DNA of 64,000 nt from Amoebophrya sp. A120 (lineage: Eukaryota; Protista; Dinoflagellata). The notes under the pieces are model-generated. The model had not been told where the DNA came from. It ran no database searches and was given only the letters and a program-made list of their open reading frames with translations. Shown in pieces: positions 1 to 28,268 of this stretch (positions are counted from its first letter, which is position 1; every line of letters starts with the position of its first letter). Location: the NCBI GenBank assembly GCA_905178155.1, contig CAJINV010000001.1, positions 5,985,860 through 6,049,859 on the forward strand. The letters are read 5' to 3'. Made by a program: the position numbers and the translations under genes.

Positions 1-191
1 CAGAGGTTGTGCGGGATATTCAGTTTTTGTTATCCCGGGACATTTGTGTTCCTTACCCACTTCCTCATTTCCTGGTTGACCAGTTGGTATGGTCGACTAT
101 AGGTGCCACCCTCGTTTCTCACCTCCAGGGGCCCTGGGCTCACCTCACCAGTGATGTTTCACTTGGTGGAAGTTGACAGGGTTCTACGAGC
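1..191. ncRNA. Putative conserved structured RNA (copy A), family unknown
   Basis: Stems CGGGATA 12-18/TATCCCG 31-37, GTTGACCA 75-82/TGGTCGAC 90-97 and CACCA-GTGA 146-154/TCAC-T-TGGTG 159-168. The same positions form stems of different sequence in 16631-16826. Confidence 0.6.
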
Positions 192-213
192 TATTTTGGG
201 TGTCTATTGTCTA
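1..213. mobile_element. Right end of an introner-nested insertion element (copy A), truncated by the window edge
   Basis: Colinear with 16631-16848. ACTTCCTCATTTCCTG (59-74) equals 16688-16703, and GCCACCCTCGTTTCTCACCTCCAGGGG (105-131) matches 16739-16765 at 26/27. Similarity to the introner at 6200-6343 resumes at about 214. Confidence 0.8.
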
Positions 214-359
214 TTCTAATTACGCATGACAAATGCCCTCTCCGCGTGCCAAGAACTGACTCCTCTTGCTGCTCATGCAACACAGATATTTTTAGAATCC
301 GCAGACAGCATTACAAATTCCACTCATCCAGACCCAGACATTTTTGCATTTGATACCGG
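214..359 (+). mobile_element. 3' part of a family-1 introner (non-canonical intron) hosting the nested insert
   Basis: Ends in the TIR CCAGACCCAGACATTTTTGCATTTGATA (to 355). 224-355 aligns with 6211-6343. Confidence 0.85.
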
Positions 360-3835: not shown

Positions 3836-6800
3836 ATGAGGGCTTTTTCTCCGCGTCCCTCCTGTGTAACAACTACACGATCAGTGCTAAAAACAACGGG
3901 TGCTTGTACAGCAACAAATCCTGCTGGATCGAGCAACAAGAGGCATTATTTCCACCCCTTCTTATCTGCTAGTGCCTGCGGCCTTGCGGTGGTCCTCTTT
4001 TTTCCCGACGTATCCCAGGCCGCTATGAACGTCAATTTGAATGGGGTGGAGGAGGAGGTCGGCCGCCTGCGCGAGCGGATTTTATCGTAAGGAAAAATCC
4101 CCCCTCCCCATATCGAAAACGAAACTTGTCATGCTGTATTTGAGTACACAAATGCAAATGCTAGAAGACCGAGAGCCGCAGTTGTGGCCTAGTTTGCAGG
4201 CAATTTGTGATGGTGTTTCCCACTTCCAGCTGCCTCCTGTCATGCTGCAGAAGCAAGGCTTTCCCACGCCACCCAGTAATACAGTCCGCCTCTTTTCCCG
4301 TCTAGCATGACAAAGCTAATTTGTGACCACAGACCTGCATCACAGACTTCCGTTTCGATATGGGGAGGGGGGATTTTTCTTCTTGATAGATTTTCGTCGA
4401 CCGCAAGTTTGTGGCGAAGCGGGGCAGCCGGACCGCGGTCCGTCGCGGCCTGCGGCGGCTGCCCAAGCCCGTGAAGGCCGCCTACGTATCCTGTGCAAAA
4501 GTATCGTACTCGTATTGCAATCATGCATTACAAATCCTGTACCTATGGTCAATCAGCATTACAAATTTTATTTCTCATGCTGAGAAAATTTGTAATGCAT
4601 TTATACGAGTACGATACTTTTGCAGTTCATACTATGCGGTGTCTGGTGATCATGACCTGTACAACAGCGACGTGGATGAAGACGCGGAGAACGGCGGCAT
4701 CGAGGAGGTTTCCGACCACGCGGTGCTGTCCAAGAGCGAGTCCAGCGACGGCAAGATCACGCCGTCGTCGCGCGACGGCGAGCGGACCCGCTCCCTGTTC
4801 GCGGACTTTTTCGGGGAACTGCTGTTCGGTCGCCGCCCGTCGCCGGACGGCGCCGCCTACTACGCCGGGCGTGGGCGCGGAGGTGGTGGGGGTACTAACA
4901 AGGGCCGCGGCAAGGGCGGGAATTATCGGGGCGGCGGGAGTAGTACAAGGCAAGCGGGGCTTTATTCTACTTCCATGGAGTCATCTTCATCGTTCGGCTT
5001 CGGGGCAGACCTAGAGGAGGAGTTGGTGGAGGAGCACTACCGCAAGCAGGACAAGGAGCAGTACCTGTCGTGGCAGGTGAACGCAGCGGAAAAAACGTGC
5101 TCGTCGCTGGACGGCCCACTGTGCAAGGACGACCGCGACGTGGGAGGTGTGGTGCCGGTGTCGGTGGTGGCCGCCGGGATGCGAGTGCGCAAGAAGCCCG
5201 CGGTGCTGGACCTGTACCGGGAGGAGGCCGTGGCGGCGGACCACCGCAACATCCTGGACCTGGAGTACGGCCGCTTCACCAAGGTCGTCGCCAATCTGAC
5301 CGACCTGGCCACGCCCGTGGAGGATGTCTCGAGCTTCGAGGAGGAAGACCGGCCGTACTGGGCGAGGGACTACGGAGACAGGCGCGGGAAAAAACGAGGA
5401 AAAAACGCTGTCAAGGTCGTGAAGAAGAAGCAAATCGACTTCACCTCCGACTCCGCCGGTCGCAACCTTCAGCACATGCAGGTGGCAGATCTGAGTCACG
5501 GTGCCACGCTCCGGCGTACTTCCCTGTCGTACGTGGATGTTGAATCAAGCCGGGTCCTCGCAGGAGATCATGTGGTGGTCACCACGGCGAGGACCCGCGG
5601 CATCAAAGGAGGCGACCGGCTCATTGCTGAGGGAGACGATGCGGCAGCTGGGAACTCAACATCTCTCGCGGGGTCCTTCATCGAAGGCGACGGCGCGAAG
5701 GGCAGAGGAGAAATGAGAGAAAACGAAGAAGATGTTGAACAGCAGCTCCAGAAGAACCACGAACTGCAACAGTATCATTCGTCTGCTTCAGAGTTTCATG
5801 AACCACGGCAATTTGCATCACGGACCTCGACAAATGAAGCCAGTAGCGCAAAGTCAGCGGCAGCGGCCGACCTGATCCGGGTTGCATTCCGAGGAGGCTG
5901 GCGGATTTTTTCAGACATCGACCGTGAGCCGGTCAACGACGTTCTTGCGGACCACGGCCGCGCAGCTCCTGAAAAGAGCATGCTCCTCGCCGGCGGCCAA
6001 TTTGGGTCAATTCGATTCTCCCGGCCCGTTTTGGTGCGGAAGTTGCTGGTTCGCGGCTCCAAAATGCACCAGCACGCCGTGTATCAAATGCAAAAATGTC
6101 TGGGTCTGGAAGATTCCGGGATTTGTGATGCATATTTTGTATGATCCGTGATGCATGTAATGCATGATCTAGCATCACAGATTTTTAGAGGACTTCCTGA
6201 TGCCTATTCCGCATGAGAAATGCCCTCTCCGCGTAACACAAACTGGGCTCCTGTTGCTGGTCACGCAATACAGATTTTTTTGGAATCCAAGGACAGCATG
6301 ACAAGTTGCAATCTTCCAGACCCAGACATTTTTGCAATGCATACCGTGATATCGGGCCGCGCCCGCTTCCGTGAGGGCCGGGAGGTTTTCCGCGCCCCAC
6401 TGTACAACGTATCAAATGTAAACATGTCTGGGTCTGGAAACTTGTGATGCTGGGTGGCGTCTCATGATGAGGCCACAAGTGCTGGCTCAGCATGACAAGT
6501 TTCTGAGCTTCTAGGTGTTGCCTATTCTGCATGACAAACTGCGTTTCTGCATCACGGAAAAATGGAGCTCTTGGGTAAAGTGCATGACAGATTTAAGAGT
6601 CATGCCAGACAAGCATGACAAACATGCATTCTTCCAGACCCAGACATTTTTACATTTGATACAATGTGACCAAGACCGATTTGCTGGCCAGCTACTCGGT
6701 GCCGGGGGGCTGCGGCTCCCATCTGCGCAGCACCTGCCGCGCCGACGCGGACGAACAGCAGTTCCACCGGGGGTTCCACCACGTTCCTGCTGTCGAGGGA

Positions 6801-9800
6801 AGCAGTGGCAGTGGGAGCGCAGAACCTTCTATGCATGAAATTCAGCTCGTCCCGGCGCCGCGCCAAGATCTTGTCGAGGACCACGATCCGGTTATTTGTA
6901 ATGGCAATGGGTCAACACCAGGAACATCAACCTCCACCTGCCAGAACACGGGGACGGGGCACGACGTGGCAGACGAAGAGGCCCACGACCACGCTTTTCT
7001 TGGAGAAAAACCAAAAAATATCGACAAAAATCTGCTGGCGCCGCTGAGCGGGCCCCTGCGCAACTCGCTGGCGAAGTTTGACAGCGGCATTGATTTCGCG
7101 CAGGACAGCCTGCTGAACGTGGGCCTGGTTGCGGTGGACGAGTTGAGTTTCACGGCCGCGCGGAACGTGGAGGTCGTCGCGCTCGAGGTGACGCCGGCTG
7201 CGTACGACGAGGAGCCGCGGGCGGCTTTCGTGCTGTCGCAGGAGGGCACGGTCGTGTTGGACCACGCGGTGAGCCCCAGCGCAGCGCCCTTCCTGATGCC
7301 CCTGAAGCGAGTGCTGGAGGAGGAGTTCGCGCTCACCGAGCCGGACATGCGCTTGCACTTCCTCCCACCCCAGCTGATGATGTTGGCGGAAATAAAGGAG
7401 GAAGAAGAGAGAAAGAAGCGAGCAGCAGACCATGACGCGTACGCGTTGCGAGGAACGACTTCTACATCTGCAGTTGTAGAGCAGGAGGAGTGGATCCGCG
7501 GACAGCTGGACCGGCACAGCCGGGAGGAGGAGGAGCGGCGGCCGGGATTCGGTTCGCAAAAGCCGAACTACCTCGAGATGTTGCAGAAGAAGTCCCTGCA
7601 CAAGCGGCTGCTGGAGCGGCCCTCGTTCTACAAGATGGCTTCCATCATGCGGGAGGACGCGTTCTTTGCGCCGAAGCGGCGGCAGATCGACAAGGACCTC
7701 CACCTGCTGGACTCGGCCTTCCGGGCGCTGGGCAAGCACCAGCGCCGCAACACCGCCTTCTGGCAGGCCGAGGATCGCCTGTTTAACGAGTGGACCCTGT
7801 TCGTGCAAAACTTCGACCGGAGTCTGTACTATTCATCCACCCAAACTGCCACCACCTCGCTCGCGAGCGCTCATGATGGTATTTCGGCAACACCAGTTCA
7901 AGTTCTTGGTCAAGAAGCAGTAGAGCCACAGCTGGCCGCACCCAGCGGAGGACCAGACTACCGCGAGGATGTTGACCAGCAGAAATTATTTTCGACTTCT
8001 GCAACTTCGACTTCTGATTCTGAAAGCATCTTCTTTGGATCGAATGTAGAGGCGGGGACGCAAAATTATGACGACGGTGTTCATCATCATGATGTGGCTC
8101 TATCAGCGTCCTCGACGTCCTATTTTTACGAAGATTCGATTACAAGAACACCAGCAATGTTGGGACCAGTGGAACCACATCATGTTCAAGAGGAACCGAA
8201 GAACCAGCACCAATTACCGAACGCCGACTCGTCGTCTTCAACAAATTTCTTGACGGACGACGGATTCCTGTTCGCAGATCATGATGCGGATCATTCGGAG
8301 GACGAAATCGAAGAAGACGATGAATTTCTGGAGCAAGCACGCCGGAGAGATCCAGACTTCCCGAAAAAAGAAGTCGAGGAGCAGGAGCAGGACAGTTCCG
8401 AGCATGATAGCTGGGGGGACAGCGTCGTGAAACGAGTCACTTCGAGTCTGACACGGATTTTGAAACCGAAAAAGTACGTGAAACGGCCGCGAAAAGTCAA
8501 GCGAGCGCGGTCGAAGATCAAATCTTCTCCCAGGAGGGACATCAGTTTCCACCAGAGCAGTCGTGATCGTGCCGGGATGAAGCAATCGCCGTCGAGTCGG
8601 CCACGAGGGCGGAGCTACGGGGGGGCGCAGAAGAAGCTGACAATTCCTCGAAGAAGCACAACTGGGAGAGCTTTGTCTAAAAATCATGCGAGTACTAGCG
8701 ACGAGGAGCTTGGCGACTCAGTGTCCGATCATTCCGGCACAGACGCTTCCGAAACGTCACGGGATTCCATCTCGGGATCATCCTCCCCCGAGGGATACTG
8801 TGAGGAAAAATCCTCCCTCCCCATACTGCAAACAGGTACGTTGCTCAATTTTTGATGCTGATTTGTGACAACAAATCCTGTCTCTCTTGCAAGAGGTCAA
8901 ATCCAAAGAATCCGCCGCCCTATGCAGGCGACCAAAACAACACCCCTACGCAGGCTGAGGCTTTGCCTGCAGTGCTGCCTCACTGCAAGACAGAGCTGAT
9001 TTGTGTATACCAATCCAGCCGGAGAAGTTCGTCCGTTTCAATATGGGGAGGGGGGATTTTTCACTTTGATAAGGGATCCGCCTCGGGAAGCAGCTCCTCC
9101 GACTTCGAGAGTGACGAAGATGCTGTGGGTATCCTGAGTAAAAACGTCCCCACCCCAGAGTTGTCATGCAAATCTGCATGCCAAAAATGTTCCGCATGCG
9201 GAGCCCCATGAGAAGCATTTTCTAGCCGTGTTTGGAATTTGTGATGCTATAATCAGCATGATATACTAGATCTGTGATGCTGCTGAACTACCTAAACAGG
9301 ATTACACTACGAGGACAAATTTGTCATGCCAATCGACCAAAGCCAGCTGATTTGTCTAGCAGATTTCCCATCTTGATGACTCTGGTGTGGGGACGTTTTT
9401 CCAAATGATAGTGGGCGGCGTGCTTCTGGATAACATGTTCATGAGCGAGGAGGAGACCGGGCGGATGATGCGCGGCGGCGCCGATGATTCGGGGGATGAT
9501 ATCGCACGAAAAAAGTGTTACACTTACACATTTGTTGTCAATTTAGCAACACAGATTTTCTCTGCATGGGAGGAAAAACTTGCAATGCAGGAGAGATCAT
9601 AAGGGAAAACACATGTGAAATGAGCTTGAAAGCATTTTGTGCGGGACAGAGCTTGTCTGCATTGTTGGGCCTGCAACACAATGTGTAACTGTGACACTTT
9701 TTCCTTTGCATAGACGATGGCCAAGGCGTGGCTATGATGGACCTCGCGGATCTCTTGGCGCAAGTTTTCGTGATGGCCCCCGAGGACGGCGGACAAGAAC

Positions 9801-11732: not shown

Positions 11733-12640
11733 ATGGGTCGACGAGCGCGAAGGGCGGCCAAGCAGGCAAAGCCGCGGCCAAAACTCGACACACAATTCGA
11801 TTGCCCCTTCTGCAACTCCGCGAAAAGCGTTGAGGTACTTCATGATTTTATAATTTTAAGTTGGTGAAGTACCAGCCCAAGGCAGGTCTCATTAGGCCTG
11901 TAGTTTTACTTAATTCCCTAGCTCCGGCATCGGCGTCGGCCGACTACGATACAGATTCAAAAGACGACTCTAGTAAAGATTTTTGCAGTAAGCGTGCGAC
12001 GAGGGACTCACTGACAAACTTCGTTTTGGGTGCGCGTTGTACATCAAGTTTGTGAGAAGAAACAAATGAGACAGGAAGATGAGCTATAGTACTATTTGAC
12101 AAAATGAATCAATGAAATACGAATACGAAAGGTAAAAATGTCGAGGCCTGAGACGTTGGGGCAGCTAAAGTGTCGAGTGTGCGGTGTGGGGTACCAGACA
12201 CGTATCAATTATCTAATGGAGCCCGTAGACGTGTACTCAGAATGGATCGACGAGGCGGCGCAAATTGCGAAGCTACGCGACCAAAAGGCAAAGAACGCGC
12301 CCTCCTCTGGAGCGGCCGCCTCATCAAGCGCAGTGCCAAGGAGGTACTTAGTGCAGCCAGTTTGTTTTGTTGGTCCCGTGACCTAGTACCAAAAGCACAT
12401 GTTCTTCTCCTCCAAACGAGCTACCTACGAAAGATTGGTTGTTGAGAATATACAAAAATTATACGAATTTTTCGCTGAAAGAGAAAAATATTTAGTGGAT
12501 TTTTTCTTGTTTGCAGGTCTGCAACAGAAGGGGGAGGCAGCGTAACGGCCGCGAAGAAAGGGGACGACGAGGAGCTAAAATTCATACTGCGGGACGACAA
12601 GAGAATATCGGGACCTGAAATTGAAGACCCGGAGTTCTAG
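11733..12640 (+). CDS. ELF1: Transcription elongation factor Elf1 (ELOF1) zinc-ribbon protein, 145 aa
   Basis: Exons 11733-11834, 12132-12343 and 12517-12640 with canonical GT-AG introns. MGRR...KLDTQFDCPFCN...CRVCG...YQTRINYLMEPVDVYSEWIDE is the Elf1 signature. Confidence 0.93.
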
Positions 12641-13782: not shown

Positions 13783-16700
13783 ATGTCGGTGTTTCACCTG
13801 GGAATCGTTTGTGCATGCGTCCCGTGGTTTTACGGTCCGTATGGGCAGCAATCTTTGCAACTGGCGCAGTACTTGTACGATACCTACCAGTACCAAATCT
13901 CGTGGTTCGTGTACGAGTCGCAGCCGCTGCCGCAGGACAAGATGGACAAGTACCCCTGGGTCCGGTTTCATCGGATCGGTAAGGCACCTTGGATCTACAT
14001 TTCGGAGCTGAACGCCGAGTTCCGAAAAGCAAGTGCAGTTGCGTCTTCTAGTACTTCTATTTCGGCGAAGAAAAGCCCACCGGCTTCATCCGGCAAGGGC
14101 CGGAAGAACAAGAACGGGGAACTACAAGCTCGAACAACGTTGCCGCCAACTTGGGAAAAAAAGAAAATTGATGCTTTTGTCACGATGATGGACATGAACC
14201 GGATTTTTGTGGACGAGCCCTTCGAGCCGGTGGCCGTGTCCTTATGCATTGCAAATATGTCTGGGTCTGGAAGGTTGCAACTTGTCATGCTACATCTGGA
14301 TCGTGCAAAAATTTGTGTTGCATGATTACCAAAAGAGGTCCACTTTTGAGCAAGTTTAGAGGCCTTTTCTCATGCAGGAACGGCATGATAGAGATCTCAC
14401 AGAACCTGTCATGCTAGGCCGTGCATGCCAGACCGCGTGGGTCATGGAAAACCTGCATGACAAGCCTAGCAATCTTCTACAGAGCCACACATTTTTGCAT
14501 TTGATAGTCCTGGTTTCCCAACCACTGGGAGAAGCTGGACATCCACTCGCGCCACGCGCTGAGCCAGTTCGAGGTCGTATGTCCCTTGGCGCCGTCGGAC
14601 GCCGTTTCGATCCAGGCTATCAACTGTAAAAATGTCTGGGTCTGGAAGAATCCAACTTGTCATGCTGATTTTGAATTCTAAAAAAATATCAATATGTATT
14701 GCATGAGCAGCAAAGAGAGTCCAAGTTTTGCTGCACGGAAAGAGCATTTATCATGCGGTATAGGCATCAGGAAGCCCTCACAAAATCTGTGATGTTAGGG
14801 CATGCATCACAGACATCAGGAGTCATGCAAAATGTGCATTTTGGCTCAAGTGGAGTTTCGCAAGGAAAGTAGATAAACACCCGTACGTGGCGGGTCCTCT
14901 GTGCCCCTTTACAGTAGTACAAGCTAGAGCATCGGCGCCCCGAGCGTCCGTGCGAACACTAAAAACGCACATGGCCTCTCCTCCGACGACAGCCATCGAC
15001 TTACCGTCTTGCCCACGCCCAGAAGCACGGTAAAGGACCGCCACGCCGCCAATGACTGCCGGTGGATTGGGCAGGTGCCATGACAAGCATAGCATGGACC
15101 TCGGCATAAAGCACAACACGAGCGGAAAAAGGGCGCTTCGTTACTATCTTCGATGAGAAGGCTGGTCACCACACGCGGCCCAGCACAATCCCCAGCATGA
15201 GTGGAGTCGGACGCTTTCGGGAAGACATCTTCCGCGCAGGGTCCGCGCATCAGCAGATGCCGCGTGGCGCATCACGGGACGCGAGCGTGCGCTGGAGCCA
15301 CGGCCATGTGATGGCGATCCTCTGGGCGGAGCAAAGTAGTATAGAGCTATTTTTTATTGTGCTTTTTGGTTTCCTCCTCTTATGTCCTTGCATGTGAAGT
15401 AGCTTCGTTGTGTCTCCTTCTCTCTTTCATCATTTGGCCGGTCTGCTACTCTGTTGTTGTGTGCACGGGGGCGGAACATGTCCGTCCCCGTCGTTGCCTC
15501 AATTAAATCACAGGTGCCCGCTCTTCCTGTGGACCCTGGAAGATGATGTTGTCGCTCGACCAAGATTCGCCTGCGCTGTCACCGCATCTCTCCCACCCCC
15601 AGAATCCAGGGCAGACCTGATAGTCTGTGCGCGTAAAGTCCCTGCTGTGACTCTAGCGGCACCCCTGATAGAGCGTGTTTGGATTCTGGGCATTTGCGCA
15701 CAGGACTGCGGCCCAGCAACGCAGGCCAGGGCGGGACCATAGGAGCTTCGCGAGGCGGCGCGGGTACTCCTAAATGGCTTACGGTAGTGGAGTCGGCGGG
15801 CTGCTGGACGTATCTTGAGTTCCCCGCCCCAGATGCGTATGCGAGCGCGCGCGGCATTTCCAGCTCCCTCGTTCGAGGTAGTAGCCATGTCTGGGTTCCC
15901 CACGAGGACGAGATACGAGTGGAAGCCAGTGCCGACCAACATGAACGCGTGGCGACGGATCCCGCAAACGAGATGATGGGTGTTGCTCACCGCCTTCGGT
16001 GTTGGCGACGTGTCTGGATGCTGGATGTCCTATGTCCACCCCTCTCGTGGCCGTTCTGGTGCGCCTTCTCATGTGAGGTCGTTGACATGGCTTGGTGGGA
16101 AATTCCCGTTGCGCGAGGCTCTTGCCTTGCCCTCTGTCTTCGTCCCCAGTGGTGTTGCGACAGTAGAAGCGTCTGTTGTGGCCGTCGGAGCTTGCTCTGG
16201 GTCTTGCGGCTCCTCTTGTCTTCGGTGGAGTACCTGAGTGGCTTCTGCTGCTGCCTCCGTTGACTTTTGGCTGCTGCTTGACTGGCGGTTGGGAACACTT
16301 CAGGCGTCTTTGTGCTGTGCTTCGGCCGCGTGGTCCCCAGTTTTCCCCGGGTCCGGAACTCTGGGTTACCTTGGTCGAGTTGGTGTCACTGTCGGTTCAC
16401 CTATGTCCCTGCCTTTCTGTTCTTGCCACTGGGAACAGTCTGTGCGTTTCTTTCGTCAGCGGCTTCTTGGCGCTGAAGCTCGTTGACGATTGTTTCGGGA
16501 GGTTCCTTACGGCCCCTGAGGACATTGCCTCGCTGCCGACCAGGCCGAACTTAGAGGTCGGCTTCGGGAAGGCTACCCGGAGTTGAGTCTGTTTCGGCAG
16601 GTCTCTTGTGAATGCGAGGGCAGTGGTTGGCTGAGGTTGTTGGAGCGTTCCATAGTGTCGCTCCAGATCATTTCTGATCCTTCTCCAACTTCCTCATTTC

Positions 16701-19700
16701 CTGTGTGGTCTAATGCAGATTGCAGATCACAACACAGGGCCACCCTCGTATCTCACCTCCAGGGGGGGCGCGCGGACCTCGCTTGCCATTTCGTTTGGTC
16801 TCGCGAAAGTTCCAGCTCCCCCGAGCGGTAGTAGGGAATTTCCAAGAGTGCAAAATGTGCATGACAAACCTGGCGATCTTCCAGACCCAGACACTTTTAC
16901 ATTCGATCCAGGAGCAGCTCCCACACAAGGTGGTGCGGCACGTCCCGCACGTCATCCGCCATGTTGAACGAGACAAAGCGAGAGCACACGATAAAGAAGT
17001 AGGATCTCCACGAGAAGAAGATGGAGATCTAAAAAAGGCGGCCTTGCGCAAAAAGTTCGGGGTTCCGCCGCGGGCGTTCATAGTGCTAGTGGTGTTTTCC
17101 AACTACGATCGGCAGCACAACCGCAAGATGCCGGACATGAGTCTCGCCGTGTTTCGTGAACTGTACCGGGAGTCCGTGCGAAACGGCACCGCTGTAGAGG
17201 AGCGGCCCTTTTTGTACGTCCACGCGCTGAAGCATCCGGACCTGCAGAAGGAGCAGGGCAGCGAGGGGATGCCCATGCACCTCATTTGGGATTCGCTACA
17301 GCAGGACGGGGAAATCTTGCCAATCCGCGTCAACGAGGACGAAATGCCCTACGCCGACATTCTGCAGCTCCCGCAGATGGCGGACGTGTTTCTCCATCCC
17401 GCTGTATCACGTGGCGTGAAAACTAGAACCTTAGACCAGATGCTGTCATGGGCTATAATGAACGGATCTCTGTACCAAATATAAATAAACACCGTTGAAA
17501 TTATCATTATGCTAGCACATACAAAATCAATTGCGGAGGCATTTTCTTATGCTAAGAAATATTCAATTCCTCGTGCTTGTGACGGTGAGGATTACACCAG
17601 GTTCTTTTTCACTGCATACGAAAAGGCGGAGGGCTTTGGGCTACCCGTGCTGGAGGCGCAGTTGGGCGGCATTCCGGTCGTCACCACCGCGTTCGGGGCC
17701 ATGCGCGACTACGCGATGTATGGGCGCGCAGTACCTCCAAACGGGCCGCTTTTTATGGAGCTGGGTTTCGCAGCCATGCCGGATTTTCAAGGGACCCTCA
17801 GCGCGCTGCGGGACTTACACTGGAGCCTCACTTCCATTCGGAAGGCGTCGGGAGGAATTGCGGACAGCCAAGGAAGAACTGGGCGGAAGCAAGAAGAGCG
17901 GCAGGAAGAAGTGCTAGCTTGCAAAAGCAGGAGGCCCAGGGAAGGTGAAGGGCGGAGTGCGGAATTGGATATTGAAGACGGGCCTCGGAGTCTCGCTGCG
18001 CCACGCGCTGCATCAAGGCGGGAGGTCCAGGTGGATAGTTTAGGCCTCGTGGTCGATGGCGGTGGTGAAGGGAACAGAACTAGTGCGGAGAGCCACGACG
18101 CCCGCTCGATTGTTCAGCGGCTGCGATGTGAACTCGAAGAGCAAAGGGAGCGTGCGCAAGCATACATTGCCGCCAACATGTCCGCTGCCAGTGTGGGAGA
18201 CGCGTTCCACAGTTATGAATTGTAGAAAGGAAATCTTCCTCACGAGGAGACGATTCAAGTGCAGGAGGTTAGTGAATGCATGCAACTCGAAGTCAAGCGA
18301 CATTTCTTTTTGCTGCACGATGTCACTGCGTTCATCTTCTCCATTCTATATGAATCTTCTATCATCGGAGCGGTTTGTATAGCATTGAAAGCACGAAAGG
18401 CTTGTAGGCGGAAAAACGATGAATGACAACGATGAGGCTCCTCTCCTTTTTTCAAAAATATTTCACTACGTCGTGGTACGAAAGCAAAGTACAAGTACTC
18501 GTGAACATACTTGACTCAATTTCTGCAGTAGCAGGGGGAAGATTCAGTTTTTCTTTCACAGCGTCGTATTCGCGTCCGTCCGGAAGCCCGCCTACGTATC
18601 ACACAGAAAAAAGCTGGCAGGGCATATTTGTAATGCAAAAATAAATACGCAAAAAAATCTGTCATGGGTGGCCCCTTAGCATGCTGTTTCGGATATGCAA
18701 CACAGATCTTTTTGTGTATTTATTTTTGCATTACAAATGTGACCTGCCAGCTTTTTTCTGTGTGATACTACGAGACAACGTTTCGCGTGTTTTCGTACGC
18801 CGAAAAGGTCCCCAAGAACCCGCCGGAAACGTCGCGGAAGGTGAAGTTTTTTGCTAAGAGCATGAAATCTTTTTTCCCATTCCCAATGTGAAGGTGATAC
18901 TTGGTTGTACAACCTATATGCTGGTCCTTTCCGTCGCTGCGCCGGTTTTTACACCTTGCCTGCGGTGCTTGCCTGGGAAAGAAGACGTTTTTAGACAGAG
19001 TTGAGGCCAACGCATGGTAAGTCTTCAGCGTTGTAACCAAAGAGAACGAGACCTCAAAGAGGCTTGTTTTCGGGGAAGGTAAACTTGTAAATGCAGAAAA
19101 CAAAAGCTTTCTTGTTCATACCAATCTTCGTCTCGCCAAATTTCGTCATTGACCGTGACAAAGTAAATTACGTAATCAAGAATTACGTGATCAACAAGAC
19201 TGACCACAATGCGACCACCTCGGAGCTGGCGGTGACAAACAGGAGCACCACGCAAAGCAAAATTGATGGGGAAAATGCAACGCAGCTGGTCGCGACATCG
19301 CAAAACCTAACGTCTTCTAGTGCCGATGCCGAAGGGCCCTTATGCAATATCGCACCGACCCGGCCTTGCGCTAGCGCTTCGCCCTACCGTTGTCTTTCTG
19401 CTGCTTTCCATGATTTGGTTCATTTTTTTTTTTGCATTCTGTTTCTTTTCATTGTCTTTCTATGTCTTCTATCCGCGGTTGTTGTGCCGGGGAGAAGTGT
19501 GCGCATCGAACTGCTCTTGTAATGAAGACCAGCAGAAAAAAAGAAAAACGGATGCCACGTCCCACGTTGCTGTGGTGCTAGTTTTCGTAGTTGTCATGTA
19601 CTTACCTGATTTTTTGTATGAGTACAATCTGACGGAGCAGCAGCAGCCGGCGTCACAGCGGTGGTGGCGGCGCCAGGTGGTCCGTGTTTGCACTTGCATT

Positions 19701-20220
19701 CTGCACGCTGTGGGTGGGATCACATTACGAGCTATCGGGTGGGGAGATGCCACGGTTTTCTTTCGGGAAGGGTGTTGTGCAGAAGAAGGCCGGCTCTCGG
19801 GTGCTCGGGATCCTGGACGGCGGTGGAGCGTCGGGAGAGATGCCGACTCTGATCATGCGCCGCAAGGTGTGGAGAAAAGTCTGGAAGCCGGATGTTCCTG
19901 CGGTGCAGATCTTTCAAAAAATGCACGCAATTAGCCGGGATTTCCGCTACGCCGGCGTGGTCGGTGTACGGCGTCCCATATGCGAAGAAAAAAGTGTTAC
20001 AATTACGCATTGATGTTTTGCGGAACAAGCAAGACAGACCACAACCTTTGTCATGCCACAAATGCTTTCGGCTCTCGTTTCGTAACTGTTTTCCTTTGTG
20101 ATCGCTGCGTTGAAGATGTAGAGCAGCTTAAGGTAGTGGAACTGTAACACTTTTTTGTTGGGATATCCCACACAACAGTGGGGTCAGGGAGATTACGCCC
20201 TTCCGGGCGTGAAACGGTGA
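13783..20220 (+). CDS. GT-B fold glycosyltransferase (GT4 / Glycos_transf_1-like), multi-exon; 3' exons uncertain
   Basis: Spliced motif DVFLHPA^KAEGFGLPVLEAQLGGIPVVTT. Exons 13783-14241, 14511-14616, 16913-17403, 17623-18212, ~18565-18595 and 18772 onward are in frame. Structure between ~18840 and 19680 is unresolved, so the last part could be a separate gene. Confidence 0.75.
14242..14510 (+). mobile_element. Introner, TIR family 1
   Basis: TATGCATTGCAAATATGTCTGGGTCTGGAAG ... CACATTTTTGCATTTGATA. Direct repeat GTCCT/GTCCT. Join gives AVS^WFPNHW. Confidence 0.9.
14840..16848. mobile_element. 2009-bp non-autonomous insertion (copy B) with a 14-bp target-site duplication
   Basis: TGCAAAATGTGCAT occurs at 14826-14839 and 16849-16862, while the intact introner has the site once (TGCAAACTGTGCTTGACAAACC near 59005). 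No TIR and no recognisable ORF. Confidence 0.88.
16631..16826. ncRNA. Putative conserved structured RNA (copy B), family unknown
   Basis: Stems TGGAGCG 16641-16647/CGCTCCA 16659-16665, GATCA 16666-16670/TGATC 16675-16679, CCTGTG 16700-16705/CACAGG 16733-16738 and TCGC 16779-16782/GCGA 16803-16806. They covary with 1-191. Confidence 0.6.
17404..17622 (+). mobile_element. Decayed introner
   Basis: TAT...ATA ends and residual TIR GTGAAAACTAGAACCT/AGGTTCTTTTTCAC. Removal rebuilds the P-x-x-x-EGFG glycosyltransferase motif. Confidence 0.8.
18213..18564 (+). mobile_element. Decayed introner
   Basis: TATGAATTGTAGAAAGGAAATCTTCC/GGAAGATTCAGTTTTTCTTTCACA. In-frame join AFHS^VFASVRK. The 3' end could instead be the AG at 18561. 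Confidence 0.6.
18596..18771 (+). mobile_element. Young, almost fully palindromic introner (MITE-like)
   Basis: About 60-nt TIR starting TATCACACAGAAAAAAGCTGGCAGG/CCTGCCAGCTTTTTTCTGTGTGATA. Direct repeat CTACG/CTACG. Confidence 0.92.
19978..20169 (+). mobile_element. Introner, TIR family 3
   Basis: AAAAAAGTGTTACAATT/AACTGTAACACTTTTTT. Direct repeat TCCCA/TCCCA. Confidence 0.88.
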
Positions 20221-20714: not shown

Positions 20715-21772
20715 TCTACTGAATCGTTTTCGTTCAAGGCTTCGGTCTGGAATAAGTGCTTGCCTTTTTCCTTCAGAACACAGCAAAAAACAACTATCCC
20801 AACTTGATATAACAAAATCCCAACTTGACTCCAGCAACGACCTGAATCCGATCTGCTTCTCTCCTACATTGATTTGGTAAAGAAAAAGAGACAGTAGAGA
20901 GAAAAGTGAAGCCTTGGATCGAAAACCATAGGGGAATTCTGTCGGTTTGGGTTGTTTCTTATGGAAAATCATGAGTTGACACAGCAAAATCCCAAGTTGA
21001 CAGAAAACACGACTACTACACGCTCTCAGAGGAGTGCTTCCACGTTCTCAGACAACTCCTTCATCACCCGGGAGTGCTCCTCAAGTGGATGCGTGGACGT
21101 ATTGCATTGAAAGGACGACGCAGGTGGACGGTGTGGAGGTACTCCACACGGACTATGGACGCAGGGAGACGCGGACGTCACAACTGGACGTCGTGGGTGC
21201 CTCATGCGCGCACGATATATGGGCCATGGGGGCCGCCCTCTTTGCACGATATGGCGGCCCCTTTTTGTGCGAAATATGGGCCTTTTTTGCACGGTGCATG
21301 GGCCTCTTTTGTACGATGCATGGGCCTTTTTTGTACGATATATGGGCCATTTTTGTGCGATATGTGGACCATTTTTGTGCGATATGTGGACCATTTTTGC
21401 ACGATGTGCGGGCCTTTTTCGCACGAAGGTCTAGCACTTTTCGAACGATATTCCGGTCGCGCCGGGACTGCTGCCGAGCCTCTCCGCCTGGAGAAGCCAG
21501 GGCCCTGGGTGGGCAGAATTGGCGATGCTAAACACTACCACTCGGGCAAAAATACCAATATCGTGGAAAATCGCCAACAACGGGAGCGAATTCGCTTGGG
21601 ACAAGGCCAACAGCGCTACCCTGCTCCACCCTAGCGCGGGCTGTATCTACCCGGTAGAAGCAGAGCTCCCAAGCCCCCACAGAAGGCCCCCTAGCTACAG
21701 GCCCCTTAGCTGGAGGCCCCCCAGGAGGCTGTATCTACTGAATCGTTTTCCTTCAAGGCTTCGGTCTGGAAT
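20715..21772. repeat. ~980-bp segment bracketed by a 39-bp direct repeat
   Basis: TCTACTGAATCGTTTTC(G/C)TTCAAGGCTTCGGTCTGGAAT at 20715-20753 and 21734-21772, one mismatch. Confidence 0.8.
21210..21426. repeat. Minisatellite, ~22-nt unit, about 9-10 degenerate copies
   Basis: Consensus approximately TTTTTG(C/T)(A/G)CGATAT(A/G)TGG(G/A)CCA, head to tail with no spacers. Confidence 0.9.
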
Positions 21773-22375
21773 TATGCACGCTCAACGGCACAAACACTGC
21801 TGCGTTCCGTGAGGCTGACTACTAACTTTGGGTTTTTCATCAGCTTGGTAAAACTCGGCTAAATCGTTCTTGTTGTTGCAGTTTCGTGCGTCTCTCATAC
21901 ATCTCGTGTTGTTCTCAACAGAAATAGAACAATGTTGAAATACGCCACTTCGTCCTCGCCTTGACATTCGTGCGTAGGTGATTTGTTTCGAAATTTCCCA
22001 TGTAGTGCAGCCCTGTACGCAGTCGCAAGTGTGCAATGCTTTTTACGGAAGTGAAAATTTCGTTCATACACCATTTTTATCGTAATTATTCATACGTAAA
22101 ATAACTCTTCCCAGGCCCCCCGCGTAGCTTACTAGCTTTTGTCACAAACTCAGGTATCGGCAGTATAGTTTGTACCGCCGAGTAAAAGGGAGAAGTAAGT
22201 TGTCTGTGTGTGGTACGTCGGGCTCGGGACGGACCTGACCATTACGGCTACTGGCACTCGTGTGCGTCAAGTAGTTACAACTTGCTGCTGTAAAGTAATC
22301 GCAGCAGAGAGGCAGTGCCAGTGGCATCTCGAGGTCGACGGGGAGTAGGGTCGTACCCGGGGCAAGTCGAGCGGC

Positions 22376-25300
22376 ATGTCGAAGGTTATTCGCTTTTTCT
22401 TTTTCCCCACGGCGCCGGTGTTCCGCGAGCTGCAGAAGTGGTCCAGGAGTTGCGTCGATGTTGTCGGCACAGCGCAGGCGTACACCCTTACAACGAAGCG
22501 GCGAGAAAAATTGCGAACGGTTCTGCCCGCGCGCCGCGCTCGGAACAGAGTTTTGATGACGATGGACAGGCAGCGCCGCCCGGCTCGGGAGACAAAGGCT
22601 GAGGGGCGACGAGCACGAGTTCATCATCGACGAGCCGATACCATTGTCAAGAATTCCCCGCCCTTGAAAAGACACCACGCTAGCAGTTCGTTCGTGGACG
22701 CGCGGAAAAATCATCAGGGCGACGATAGTCAAGGACAACAAGGAGGTGGATGGAGTACGGCGGCAGAAGTGTTGAACCATGTGGAGGCGGCGCTGCGAAA
22801 TCTAGAAGCGAAGGTGCAGGAGATCGCGACCGTTTGTAAGAAGGACACGGCGAGCCACGCGTTACTGGATGTGTCCGGTAATATGGCCCATCTGGGGGTG
22901 TGCACGGACGACAGCCAGTGCTTGCAGCGGGACGGCCCCGGGGCGCTTACTAAAGTCGATTATACACGCGTTGGAGCGGCTGTCGGCGAGACGGGGAGCG
23001 GTGCGCAGCAAACAGCCGATGTGGACGTAGAGCTGTGCATTCGCAACGGCGTTGCCCAGTTATTTCTCAACCAAACCGGGTCGCACCTGCGGGCGGAACC
23101 GCCGGTCGTCACCGACCCGGCCAGCGGGGAGGGGTACTACGAGCGAACGGAGGGCTTTGCTACGTTCGTTGTCGAGAGAGTCCCGGGAACAAGCGATATC
23201 TCGGTTCAAAAGCAGGCCGCAGACCGGCGGATCATCGTGCAGTGGCCGCATCAACACAGTCGCGCCGAGAAACTGAATGTTGCCGCCGATGGAAATGCGC
23301 AGATGGTCGAGAATCCGCTACTGACGCATGAATCCAAGACCGTAAACGCCCCCTGGTACGTGCGCACGCTCACGGGCGGTGTGCAGAAGAACGTTCTCAT
23401 TGCACTGGACCGCTCACAATCTATGGATGTTCCCCCAAAGAAGCTGCCTGGTGCCAGGCGAGCTGCCATTCAGATCCTGGATAGCCTCGCGGTGACGGAC
23501 ACTTTCTTTGTGATGTCATACCAGCATCCCGTACAGTTTTCGGCGTTCGAATTTGTCCATACGACGGACTCCCACAAGGAGAGCGCCACTGAGTGGCTTA
23601 ATAACATTTACGCTGCCGGTGGATCGACAACCCGTCCGGACGCCGAGTTTGGGTTGGGTACGGCCCTGGTCGTGGGCAGTCTCGGCGTTGTGCCAGAACC
23701 ATGGCGGGACAAGATCACCAGCACAGTGCCCGCAGACGAGAGACCTGCGCAACTTCCGGCCGTCACGGATCCACCAGATTGCCCGTTCGCTGCTAGTCAG
23801 GGTTGCGAGAAGACGGTGCTCGTGATGATGTCGGACGCTCCCCTAAAACAGGGCCAGGAAGATGCAGAAAAGGGACAGTGGCTAAAGGCTGTTCGAACGC
23901 TTCTCGATGCGGATGCGGCGCAGTCACAGGGCATCTATTCGTCATCTAGTGGGGACGGTGGCAGTGGTTCAACACCAGAGCCGGCGGTGCTCGTCAATGT
24001 GTATGCACTCAAAAACCCGTTCGAGTTCTTTGGAACGCCACCGCAGGGCCCGTCGCTAACGCCCTATTACGAAACACTGGCCGGCAAGTTTGGCGGTGAA
24101 GCAATGGCAATGGATGACAGTCAGGACATGATGGCAACAATGTCGCGATACTGGCGCTCATTGGTCCAGGGCGCGAGCGACGCGAGCGGCTCCCGGAGTG
24201 TCGTCTGGACTTGGAATGATGTAGCCACCACGGAAGATGCGACGGGTAGGAGTGAGCTCACAGCCTGCCGTCGCATTGATTTCAACACTGGCAACAACGA
24301 CTTGCAGGGTGTTATGTGTGTGGAACCCAGCGCAGTGCTGCCTCTGACCCTCAACGAGCTGCAGTGCCTCCCGAGGTTTTTGGAAGAAATGCACACTCGG
24401 CTACGGTCGACGAACTGCAGTGTGGAAAACAAAGCAAAATGCCGCGCGGAGGCAGTGGTGTGCGCAGCTGCAGGATGGACTCCATGCGACTGCGACAACA
24501 CCGTACAACTTCGAGTACAACAGCGTACAAAACTACGAGAACAATGGTGGTTACATAGGGACAGTAGCGACTGCAGAGACCCTTTTCGAGGTAATGAAGA
24601 AGGCGATTACTGCAGTACCGGAATCCGAACAAAAAATCACGACCGAGAAGCGCAAGTCAAACCACCCCCACCCGCAATTGTATCGGATACAAGACCCACT
24701 GGATGCCGAGCTGAAGGCTTTGGCCTGCTACTCAAGCCCCGTGCCGTCGCCGGATAGCACACCAGGACCCGGAGGCCTGACCACGGGGAGCCCGCCAGGG
24801 CCGACACCCGGGCCTGCTCCGGGGCCGAGCCCCAGTACTACCCCTGGGCCGAGCCCGGGATCGCCCGGGCCGGGGCCGAGCACAACCGAAACCCCGCCGG
24901 GAGGCCCCGGAAGCCCGTCTGGCACCGATCCTCCAGGGAACCTCGGGCCAGAAGTGGTTTTTTCGGACACAAACACGACTAGCGCTCCCGGATCGAATAG
25001 CACCACCGTGCCGCCCGCGCATGACCGTGCCCCGCCTGACGATGTCGCGAAGACGGGCTTGCTTGCGCCCGCGGCGGGTACTGGTCTGGCGCTGTTGTTG
25101 CTGGCAGCTTTGCTACTCGTTTTTTCCGCCCGCGGTGCTTCTGCGGTGCCCGGGGTAGCGGAGGACGAGGGCGACGACCGGTGGCTGGGCGCGGATGTCC
25201 AGGACCCACTACCGTGGGGCCCCACCGAAGAGGCGCTGCTTTCCATCGGGCTGACTCCGCATTACGCCGCCCAGGTGCTGGCGCAACTCACTGCAGAGGG

Positions 25301-28268
25301 CCCTTCGGGGCCGGGAAATGCAACAGAGAAGGCCGTGGCGGCGCAGCTGCAGACCGGCCTCGCGAAACCGTCCGACGCAAAGGACCTGCGGACGATGCGG
25401 CAGCTCGGGGTGGACTTCGGCTCCCCGGAGCTCGCAACCGTCGGGTTTGCACAGAACCTGGTTCGCAAGGGGATGGCACGGACGAAAAAGACCGGGGTGG
25501 ACCTGCCATTGGCTCTGTTCACGTACCAGCGCGATGTCGAAGCCGCGGAACGGGCCCTCGTCACCGCGGGAATGACCCCGCGGGCAGGGAAGCATTTGGC
25601 GCAGCAGATCGCCGGGCCCGTCGCAGGCCACGCGCCGTTGAAGCTGCCGGAAACCGACGAGGACCTGCAGGTGCTGCGGGACCTAGGAATCGATGCCGCA
25701 GCGGACGGCGGTCCGCTTACTGCCGGGGCCACCCGGAGTGTGATAAGAAAGGCTTTCAAGAGAAGACGACCCGAGCAGCAGAATGTGGCGTTGCTGACCA
25801 CCGCGGCCGCCTGTCCGGATTTTGGCACTGCGGAAACAGCACTGCTTGCGTTGGGCCTTTCCGCCGCGGGGGCTTCGGAAGTGGCGCGGCAGATCGGCGG
25901 GAAAGGGGAGGAGGCCGACCGATTTGAATTTCCCACCGCGGGCGCGGATCGCCGGATCCTGGAGAAGGAGGGTGTGCTCGAGAGCACAAGCGCCAGCGGC
26001 CCCGGTGCTCTCAGCGCAGCGGCCGTGCAGGCCTCGTTGCAAAAGGCCGCGAAAAAGAAGAAGGCGCCAAAGCCGCTCAAGGCGCTCGCGGCCACTACCC
26101 CGGAGACGTGGACGCCCGGTGCGGTCGAGACGGCTTTGCGCGCAGCGGGGTTGAGTCCCGCAGGAGCACGGACGCTGGCCGGCGAGATCGCAGGAAACGT
26201 CACTGGACCTGGTTTGGTGAAGCCGCCTGCAACGGATGCCGACTTGCGCGCAATGCAGGCTTTGGGAGTGACTTTTCAGTCTGGTAGGGAGTCCGCGTTG
26301 AGTGTGGCAACGGTTCGGCAGATGCTTGGTAAAGTCCCGAGCCGGAGCAAAAAACGGCAACTTCACCAAGGACCCCCGGTCGCGGCGGTGGCAACGGCCC
26401 CCGGACCCGATTTCGGCGCCACCGAGGAGGCGATGTTGGGCGCCGGATTTTCCCGTCCGTACGCCGCCCGGGTGGCGCGCTGTGTCGCCGGTTTCGCCGC
26501 CGACGAGACTGCGCTGACGCGCGCAGAAACGGAGCACGACATCCGGCTATGGGAGGACGTCGGGTTTGACAGCGGCAGGCCGATTACTGCAGGGCACGTG
26601 CGACACCTCCTTTTTCCGGCGGCGCCCCGCGCCGACCGGGGATCCGCCTTCGGCCACGGACCCGCCGTGCTGAGCACCCTGCTGTTTGCCGTGAACGAAG
26701 CGGAGCACGCGTTGCTGCAAGCGGGTTTCTCCCCGGCGTTCGCCAAGAAGGCCGCGGAGAATGCGAGCGACCCGTCCCTGGAGTATACCGCGACCGTGCA
26801 GTGCCCCGTGGCCGCTGCCGACGAAATCGCCCTGCGGACCATGGCCACTCTGACTGCCGAGCGCGTCGGCGGCGGCGAGGATGGCACATTATCCGTTGCG
26901 CAGTTGCGCGGCGCCGTCCGGCGGGCGGTGGTCCGGCAGCAGAGCCGCGAGGATCCGGAGCTGGCGGCCGTCTGGGCCGACCGGGGCCTGAGCCCGCGCG
27001 AGGTTGAGCAGGCCTTTCTCTCGGCCGGCGTCACGCCTGCCTACGCCAGGAGGCTCGGACGGCAGGTCGGAACGAAAGCGGTGCCCGGCGATTCCCGCCT
27101 TGTGGAGCCCGGCGACGCGCGGGACAAGCAGATCTTGAGCACCATCGGCCTGGATTTCGCATTGCCCGAGTCCGTGGCCCGGGTTCGGGGGTTTTTCTTA
27201 GCCGTGGAAGCCGCAGCGCCGTCGAAAGACGGGCAGACCCGCGTGGACGTCTCCGTCTTGTCGCAGCCCTCGTTCGGCAACGCGGAACAGGCGGCGACGC
27301 TCGGCGGTTTCACCAAGGCCATGCCTGCGCGCACACGGCACCACGCCCCTGCGCGGCCCAAGATGCTCTGTCTCCAGGACGTGTTGGACCACGACATCGC
27401 CGAGGCGCAGGAACCCGCCTGCGCCTGTTGCAGTTGTTGCGGGGCGGCGGGCGCCGGCGGCGGGAAGACGGCCGACCCGGAGGACGACAGCACGTCGTTC
27501 ACGCACGACGGCAGTGCAGCTCCCGCGGGCACCAGAGACCAGAACGACGCTAGCAAACCCGCAATTATGGCGACGGGTGGCGGGGCTGGTTATTCGGTAG
27601 CAGGTGCGAAGCGTGGCGCGGGGGCGAAGAAGAAGGCTGCGTCGAGCCACAAGAGACTGAGCAAAGGCGGCCGGCGCGACGGCGCCTCGAAAGGCGGGTC
27701 AACGACGTCCTCGGCCGCGTCATCCAGCTCCTCCTCGCGCTCTTCGGAGAAGGACGCGAGTCACCTCAGTCACCGAAGGACCGCAAAGAAATCGCAGGCG
27801 CGCGGCACAACTAGCAGTAAGCAATCGACCGCTAGTGCAGCGCACGCACGGTCGCCGGAACAGGAGGCGCAACTGAACGCTTTGGCGGCCGCGGCAGCCA
27901 AGGCCCTGGAAGAGGTCGGCTTTCCCGCCGCCCGGGCGAAGCTCTTGGCGCAGCGAGTCGCGCAAACCGACACGGCGGACCTGAGCGATCTGGCCCTGGA
28001 CCCCGAGGATCAGGCGATCGCGGAAGCGGGGCTCGGTGGGAAAAAGATCCGCGACCTGCACGACCTTGTGGACGCACTCGTGGAGCAAAAGAAGGACTTT
28101 TTCGACGAGGTGGCACCACCGGAGATGGCGGAAGATGAGGCGGAGGACCAGCAGGCCATGTTGTTGCACAACACCGGCGGACCACAGCCTCTGTCCATTC
28201 TTCAGACCCGCTATCATCACCATGTGGTCCGCAAGAAAAAGCCTGCACATCTTCTAACAAAAAAGTAA
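22376..28268 (+). CDS. Cache-VWA (alpha2delta/CACHD1-like) single-pass membrane protein, array copy 1; intronless, frameshifted near 24428
   Basis: APWYVRTLTGGVQKNVLIALDRSQSM (PWY plus MIDAS DxSxS), MSRYWRSL...VVWT...LTAC...GVMCVEP, a Pro/Gly/Thr stalk, a TM segment LALLLLAALLLVF and cytoplasmic helical repeats. Two overlapping ORFs: 22376-24757 and 24420-28268. Confidence 0.8.

Follow-up and report, generated by a model that had tools for sequence, protein, structure and literature searches.

A compensated multi-stem RNA fold near the right end of insertions, some of them nested in introner-like elements

Two related sequences, here called copies A and B, lie in the window, the 64,000-nucleotide stretch of DNA that was analysed. 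Do they encode a functional RNA and, if so, how far does it extend, on which strand is it made and what role could it play? An initial annotation had proposed a conserved multi-stem structure with compensated stems at the end of a nested element. This proposal is supported by the present analysis, and the six sequence blocks that it had listed as common to both copies are all found where it placed them. The conserved unit is represented in the window by the following features.

1..191, + strand: copy A, helices P5-P9, recognised from the blocks, the pairing model and 190/191 columns shared with copy L001
3-10, 59-74, 105-131, 142-146, 170-174 and 187-191, + strand: conserved blocks of copy A
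192..212, + strand: 3' tail of copy A, about 20 nt, the same as that of L001
16561..16826, + strand: copy B, complete 266-nt structure closed by P0, recognised from the pairing model and the similarity to copy L002
16633-16640, 16688-16703, 16739-16765, 16776-16780, 16807-16811 and 16822-16826, + strand: conserved blocks of copy B
16827..16848, + strand: 3' tail of copy B, 22 nt

A 24-nt core occurs twice in the 64-kb window at up to three mismatches and never in 100 shuffles, and an nhmmer search of the whole window with a two-copy profile of A and B returned no third copy. Two further copies, L001 and L002, were obtained from a metagenome scan of a public collection with a strict two-block pattern, a pattern stricter than needed that may overlook distant copies. 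Copies A and B are identical in 124 of 187 aligned columns (66%), and the cores of A and L001 in 190 of 191 (99.5%), of A and L002 in 172 of 188 and of B and L002 in 117 of 186. Because A and L001 are nearly the same sequence, the independent sequences number three; the motif is real but thinly sampled.

The size of about 210 nt given in the initial annotation has to be revised. The multi-stem unit stands, and its true length is about 266 nt (16561-16826), with a start some 72 nt upstream of the earlier one (at 16561 in B). Similarity between B and L002 sets in at the closing helix P0, and upstream of it none is detected at E<=1. In copy A, the 5' strands of P0-P4 would fall before window base 1, and, as the left duplication is outside the window, the right junction is placed to within a few bases. 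Window base 1 is the very base at which the similarity of L001 to the full-length copies starts, which may be a coincidence or may reflect an assembly that broke where repeats branch.

On the + strand the order of elements is P0, P1, P2, P3, a 7-nt bulge, P4, a junction, P5 (with P6 and P7), P8, P9 and the closing strand. In copy B they are located as follows.

16561-16566 with 16822-16826, + strand: closing helix P0
16576..16582, + strand: 5' strand of P1, pairing with 16757-16764 with one bulged A
16585..16605, + strand: variable hairpin P2, clear in B and weak in L002
16608..16620, + strand: 5' strand of P3, 13 pairs with 16743-16756 and one bulged C
16621..16627, + strand: 7-nt bulge, identical in B and L002
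16628..16631, + strand: 5' strand of P4, pairing with 16739-16742; an alternative register is possible
16633..16695, + strand: P5 with a tandem U-U loop, enclosing P6 (16642-16664) and P7 (16666-16679)
16700..16738, + strand: hairpin P8, its sequence replaced between B and the A-type copies and its pairing kept
16765..16819, + strand: long hairpin P9 with a conserved 1x2 internal loop

Pairing of the four variable stems named at the outset was confirmed in both A and B. Most of the blocks between them, described as invariant linkers, prove to form the 3' side of long helices, the partner strands being located before the first base of A: when B and L002 are folded separately, the upstream 72 nt or so pair with the supposed linker in each. 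The outer pair of P1 is C-G in B and G-C in L002, and at the P3 position earlier read as W, B has U-A and L002 has A-U. A conserved partner for the 7-nt bulge was not found in B and L002, and the bulge may be a candidate for a protein or tertiary contact.

Compensatory change was counted between B and L002 in a structure-blind MAFFT alignment, which places 45 model pairs in the same columns (38 of B's 83 pairs were excluded because MAFFT does not align those stems). Thirty-seven of these pairs are invariant, seven are changed on both sides and one is broken. Seven of the eight variable pairs thus change on both sides and still pair, two of them in long-range helices, a degree of compensation reached by 2 of 500 shuffles and set against 0-2 in slid registers; the helices were chosen after the sequences had been seen, and only three sequences are independent. 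The consensus fold of A, B and L002 is more stable than column-shuffled alignments (z -5.33 on the + strand and -3.11 on the - strand, with none of 100 shuffles reaching this stability on + or on -). Single-sequence folding gives a clear signal for copy B (z -3.12 on + and -3.01 on -) and a weak one for copy A (-1.64 and -1.27). The long-range duplex alone surpasses shuffles modestly, being bettered in 21 of 1000 for B and 78 of 1000 for L002, and B 16500-16848 reaches z -4.28, whereas the complete insert of L002 is not distinguished from its shuffles by stability (z -0.51). Differences between A and L002 are equally frequent at paired (10/92) and unpaired (9/103) positions.

Three tertiary or local pairings suggested earlier gave way to this model. 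The pseudoknot between GAGGT and ACCTC is contradicted by a helix in which GAGG pairs with 63-66 (16692-16695 in B) with a probability of 0.90-1.0 in all four copies, and which shows a G-C to U-A change. The strand assigned to a CCCT/AGGG hairpin pairs upstream in B and L002, where a G-to-C change in L002 is matched, and the ACTT-AAGT pairing loses its last base in L002. The proposed pseudoknots are unsupported because their bases go to P5, P3 and P1. A GGG run lies 6-10 nt past the closing helix in all three tail types (192-212; 16827-16848; L002 5131-5155). Where the upstream strand is absent, it could pair with CCC in the 3' strand of P3, as predicted in A and L001 with a probability of 0.92-0.98, and this pairing is possibly an alternative fold of truncated copies.

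Does the fold belong to a known family? An Rfam check of the window produced 0 matches at the gathering score, and around the copies the best Rfam 15 E-values were 1.1 (B) and 0.54 (L002), with none for A. Covariance models of Rfam 15 for twister, pistol, hatchet, hairpin, GIR1, group I/II, RNase P/MRP, SRP, U3 and IRES gave no match. The poor fit to the hammerhead, HDV-like and twister consensus noted at the outset was upheld by motif tests and Rfam 15. The hammerhead core (CUGANGA plus GAAA) is absent from the fold in all four copies on both strands, two CUGANGA words being present only in the upstream flank of B. A loose HDV-like descriptor of our own matched at shuffle level (0-22 in 12 shuffles), and none of its matches is common to B and the A-type copies. 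The four inserts contain no Pol III B box at one mismatch, no tRNA was detected by ARAGORN, and SRP, RNase P/MRP, U3 and snRNA gave no match. Likenesses to a T-loop, U3 box, RNase P, SRP and IGR-IRES were discarded after the bases concerned proved to be in helices. No published description of this RNA was found in open-access main texts.

Scans of viral sequences returned 0, 2, 5 and 1 loci and scans of prokaryotes 0 and 7, and all 15 are attributed to chance (12 without a covariance-model match, 3 at 16 bits). Two of the rejected loci, L013 and L016, are one sequence, situated in a nearly open frame and devoid of P7/P8. A third, L014, consists of three hairpins in new sequence antisense in an open frame, has no P0-P4 or P9, and yields no match to the covariance model anywhere in its record. 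Its open frame reads like that of a ClpP-type protease.

Kinship of the fold, in permuted form, with the Varkud satellite (VS) ribozyme is extremely improbable. Two stretches of B, 16820-16833 (14 nt) and 16752-16761 (10 nt), match by eye the VS sequence in PMC5393176, with about 0.0016 and 0.39 such matches expected over three sequences and two strands, and natural variants are described from mitoviruses (PMC10162972). The matches, noticed after many RNAs had been compared, are not collinear, most of the 14-mer falls in the tail of B and is absent from the other copies, and the matched bases have different pairing partners here. In a comparison by eye, the VS substrate loop, A730/A756 loop and loop I-V kiss, with their generally known roles, and the VS helix order are likewise without counterpart.

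Each of the inserts in the window sits within an element bounded by terminal inverted repeats (TIRs).

213..355, + strand: right part of the TIR-bounded element hosting copy A; a GC3-rich host ORF resumes after it
14618..16907, + strand: TIR-bounded introner-like element hosting insert B
14826..14839, + strand: left 14-bp target-site duplication of insert B
14840..16560, no strand assigned: 5' part of insert B, 1.7 kb, depleted in A on + beginning at about 16040
16849..16862, + strand: right 14-bp target-site duplication of insert B, 59 nt inside the right end of the host element

When 14618-16907 is excised together with one of the direct repeats that flank it, the host frame is open again, and excision of the 504-nt TIR element of L001 likewise rejoins its host frame. 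The host ORF following copy A's element has a GC content of 0.62/0.37/0.88 by codon position. In the next ORF downstream of 14618-16907 (17485-18225), glycosyltransferase-1 (PF00534) is matched weakly, at E 8.4e-05, short of the curated cut-off. As described for Amoebophrya (PMC7789003, PMC12130899), introners share with these host elements the inverted-repeat bounds, short direct repeats and interrupted reading frames. The likeness concerns the target and not the folded RNA, and those papers give inverted repeats of 8-20 nt, shorter than the present ones.

At least four families of inverted-repeat elements occur in the window, many with TATC...GATA-like ends and direct repeats of about 5 bp; several of these introner-like elements interrupt reading frames.

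6080-6663, 14243-14506 and 58794-59064; 4082-4389 and 8796-9072; 9130-9410; 9498-9714 and 19985-20167: inverted-repeat elements

At 18596-18768 there is a 67-nt inverted repeat with 94% complementarity and a 39-nt spacer, and a related arm is present at L002 6599-6634. Other parts of the window contain a cluster of paralogous long ORFs (22349-28268, 29937-31028, 35200-38049, 48643-52992, 55055-56656 and 59527-61569), of which three match von Willebrand A weakly, under the cut-off, and three contain an internal repeat of about 85 codons, a tandem array of a 22-nt unit in at least seven copies (21234-21451) and an open frame of 1688 codons without Pfam match (40139-45205). An intron-split gene at about 11790-12330 shows two CxxC pairs in its translation, which resembles the transcription elongation factor ELF1.

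Insert B spans 14840-16848 (2009 nt) between its duplications. The L001 insert measures 215 nt and has a 16-bp target duplication; that of L002 measures about 350 nt with a duplication of 15/16, a boundary that is less sure because the duplication is T-rich and a third similar word adjoins it. In the three fully seen inserts the right end is fixed, at 22 (B), 20 (L001) and 25 (L002) nt after the closing strand, and the left ends vary when + is read as sense. L001 starts at the P4/P5 junction and carries no 5' strands of P0-P4, which is common under 5' truncation but does not prove a need for the complete fold. Tails vary from copy to copy, which is not usual for a LINE or SINE. B and L001 entered the same base of one TIR family: they share the left duplication edge at homologous TIR positions, with right edges differing by 2 nt, and lie 59 and 62 nt from the intron end. 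A, in an element of this TIR family, is about 143 nt away from its end. B and L001 are separate insertion events, since their cores agree at 66% and L001 agrees at 99.5% with A, which occupies another site. Eight distinct target-like sites were counted in the 84,128 nt examined, two of them occupied (10 motif hits, four of which are duplication halves). This combination of duplications, a fixed right end and a shared target is the anatomy of target-primed reverse transcription.

With a probability of about 0.55, the fold is the 3'-terminal cis-acting RNA signal of a non-autonomous retroelement, bound by a reverse transcriptase supplied in trans for copying into DNA. Among the functions initially listed for the RNA (a ribozyme, a recognition or priming element for reverse transcriptase, or an IRES), recognition by reverse transcriptase fits the insertion anatomy best, and neither a ribozyme nor an IRES gained positive support.

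Two further explanations were considered. The copies could be retro-pseudogenes of an unrecognised host non-coding RNA with read-through flanks, which is very unlikely. The size, the helix closing both ends and a similarity limited exactly to the fold would suit such an RNA, as would the divergent or missing snRNP parts noted for Amoebophrya-type genomes (PMC7789003). Yet copies of 63-66% identity with compensated stems imply several functional lineages, the SRP, RNase P/MRP, U3, snRNA and tRNA searches gave no match, and the target site is shared. A role in DNA transposition, as a Fanzor/TnpB-type guide scaffold at an element end or as a single-stranded DNA structure, is highly improbable. 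It would be in keeping with the fixed right end and a + strand fold near the transposon end, but insert B and the 27 window ORFs scanned contain no TnpB-like protein, the duplications of 14-16 bp go with variable left ends, and a tail of 20-25 nt separates fold and junction.

An enzyme was sought within insert B. Its 5' 1.7 kb has no similarity to the L002 leader and no codon periodicity (chi2 0.9-13.6 in 12 bins, against 11.5-96.8 in seven host bins). Neither a reverse transcriptase or endonuclease nor any other Pfam match was found in its six frames, and five single frames or ORFs had no match in large protein sets, the PDB or the Atlas; one PDB lectin match at E 1.1 was disregarded, and word-seeded protein searches are weak on decayed frames. 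An ORF combining reverse transcriptase and GIY-YIG was not found in insert B, and the copies are non-autonomous or truncated. Neither insert B nor the 27 window ORFs yielded an autonomous partner with the same 3' end. Motifs picked by eye in insert B, namely a DNA methyltransferase C-terminus, an APE endonuclease on - and a restriction-like endonuclease on +, received no support from protein searches. A short + frame from the ATG at 154-156 of A runs open through the tail in A, L001 and L002, and in B the frame is open without ATG. The tail codons of A and B score BLOSUM 7 at 5/18 DNA identity, a weak signal (p 0.01) from one frame examined post hoc. Within insert B, a T-rich word at 15345-15370, which marks a switch in strand skew, resembles the closing bases and tail of A, and 22 nt at 15850-15871 weakly resemble the P9 3' strand (E 0.054). 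Judged by this resemblance, both are possibly remains of an older element end.

The sense strand, left undecided in the initial annotation, is now likely to be +, as judged from consensus energy and G-U pairs in the sequences. The consensus energies are -50.7 on + against -32.7 on -, and -55.0 against -43.9. Shuffle z-scores are -5.33 against -3.11 in the short alignment and do not separate the strands in the long one (-3.67 against -3.86). Ten paired changes distinguish A from L002, of which six keep the pair on + through G-U, one favours - and three break it. The model helices hold 16 G-U and 0 A-C among 201 pairs, a count biased by the choice of helices on +. Host frames at B and L001 rejoin on the fold's own strand, and the fold lies on the host sense strand in the three assessable copies (B, L001 and A), which are too few to exclude chance.

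The opposite reading takes the RNA to be the - strand and the fold to be the 5' leader of a LINE, an IRES or processing signal with ORF1 starting inside it, the copies being 3'-truncated. Several features would suit it: the - strand, in the part upstream of the fold, is rich in A, poor in T and open over long frames; in L002 an ATG stands on - within P2; a few codons match B with synonymous changes; and the mirror fold, too, is more stable than shuffles. The codons in common are confined to the fold, however, and similarity ends at P0; codon periodicity is lacking, the APE-like and methyltransferase-like motifs are unsupported and the G-U pairs favour +. Target-primed reverse transcription, moreover, does not normally leave the 5' end fixed and the 3' ends variable, and we regard this leader as quite unlikely.

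A self-cleaving ribozyme of an undescribed class, freeing the element from host pre-mRNA and possibly cutting at the P4/P5 junction, is unlikely. Promoterless intron-resident retroelements with ribozymes are known (PMC6765202). The invariant unpaired bases of the fold (7-nt bulge, tandem U-U, 4-nt junction after P5 and 1x2 loop) suggest tertiary structure, and L001 begins at the P4/P5 junction, the same base at which the window begins. On the other side, the fold has no hammerhead core, no shared HDV-like match and no Rfam ribozyme, B and L002 were inserted with the P4/P5 junction intact, and one truncation point makes no pattern. Fast cleavage on the intron sense strand would also be expected to cut the host pre-mRNA. 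A more elaborate scheme has but a slim chance: a large four-junction catalytic RNA of a new class, maybe protein-assisted, would ride in the host pre-mRNA and excise itself, and a site-specific reverse transcriptase would write it into the next introner. If the fold cleaves, it would constitute a new ribozyme class.

If the fold is instead a recognition signal for reverse transcriptase, the + strand would be transcribed, probably as part of host pre-mRNA, because the fold lies on the host sense strand. A putative non-LTR or Penelope-like protein would bind the fold and nick the introner TIR. The cDNA would begin 20-25 nt downstream of the closing helix and stop at varying points, giving 5' truncation, and the insert may be tolerated because it is removed with the intron. 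This would add an uncatalogued RNA fold and point to a site-specific reverse transcriptase targeting transposon-born introns, which would be a safe harbour that also supplies transcription. A defined RNA and a defined target site would then be available for finding and testing the enzyme.

How does the element compare with known systems? Classical SINE membership fails: there is no Pol III head in the inserts. The R2 3' RNA is structured and serves a site-specific retroelement, and in this the present fold is alike. The R2 protein binds the R2 3' UTR RNA, a subject to which PMC12222951 and PMC11601368 are devoted. Here, in contrast, no rDNA target, Rfam R2 match, supported pseudoknot or restriction-like endonuclease was found.

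Penelope-like elements provide a second comparison. One Penelope-like reverse transcriptase initiates cDNA within a stem-loop close to the end of the repeat and depends on a defined region of the RNA (PMC11167929). The pLTR and tail of such elements, including those of the hammerhead-less Chlamys and Naiad elements (PMC3846280, PMC8557442, PMC11167929), are similar in the terminal unit of about 200-270 nt with a short tail beyond it, in the captured unrelated spacer upstream and in a possible short frame from the last hairpin into the tail, which here is weak (p about 0.01, post hoc). Unlike in those descriptions, no reverse transcriptase, GIY-YIG or hammerhead was found here, the tail has 20-25 nt and not 30-40, and the duplications have 14-16 bp and not 8-10 as in A. 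vaga. The three fully seen inserts contain no second pLTR-like repeat, tandem or inverted (the best candidate in B being 22 nt at E 0.054). The element cannot be filed under Penelope-like elements.

The Tx1 and Tx1-Mar LINEs and SINEU (PMC4494074) involve non-autonomous retroposed RNA, 5' truncation and target duplications, and they enter a non-autonomous DNA transposon time and again at set positions, all of which is seen here; a preference for non-autonomous DNA transposons is described there for both Tx1 and SINEU elements. The present element differs from that account in having no snRNA, tRNA or 5S head and no B box, and in its large compensated 3' fold. Its target is a TIR-bounded intron, and Tx1 is described there from animals (PMC4494074). 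If the favoured reading of the fold as a signal for reverse transcriptase is true, the pattern of retroelements targeting DNA transposons, exemplified by Tx1 and SINEU, would extend to a probable protist.
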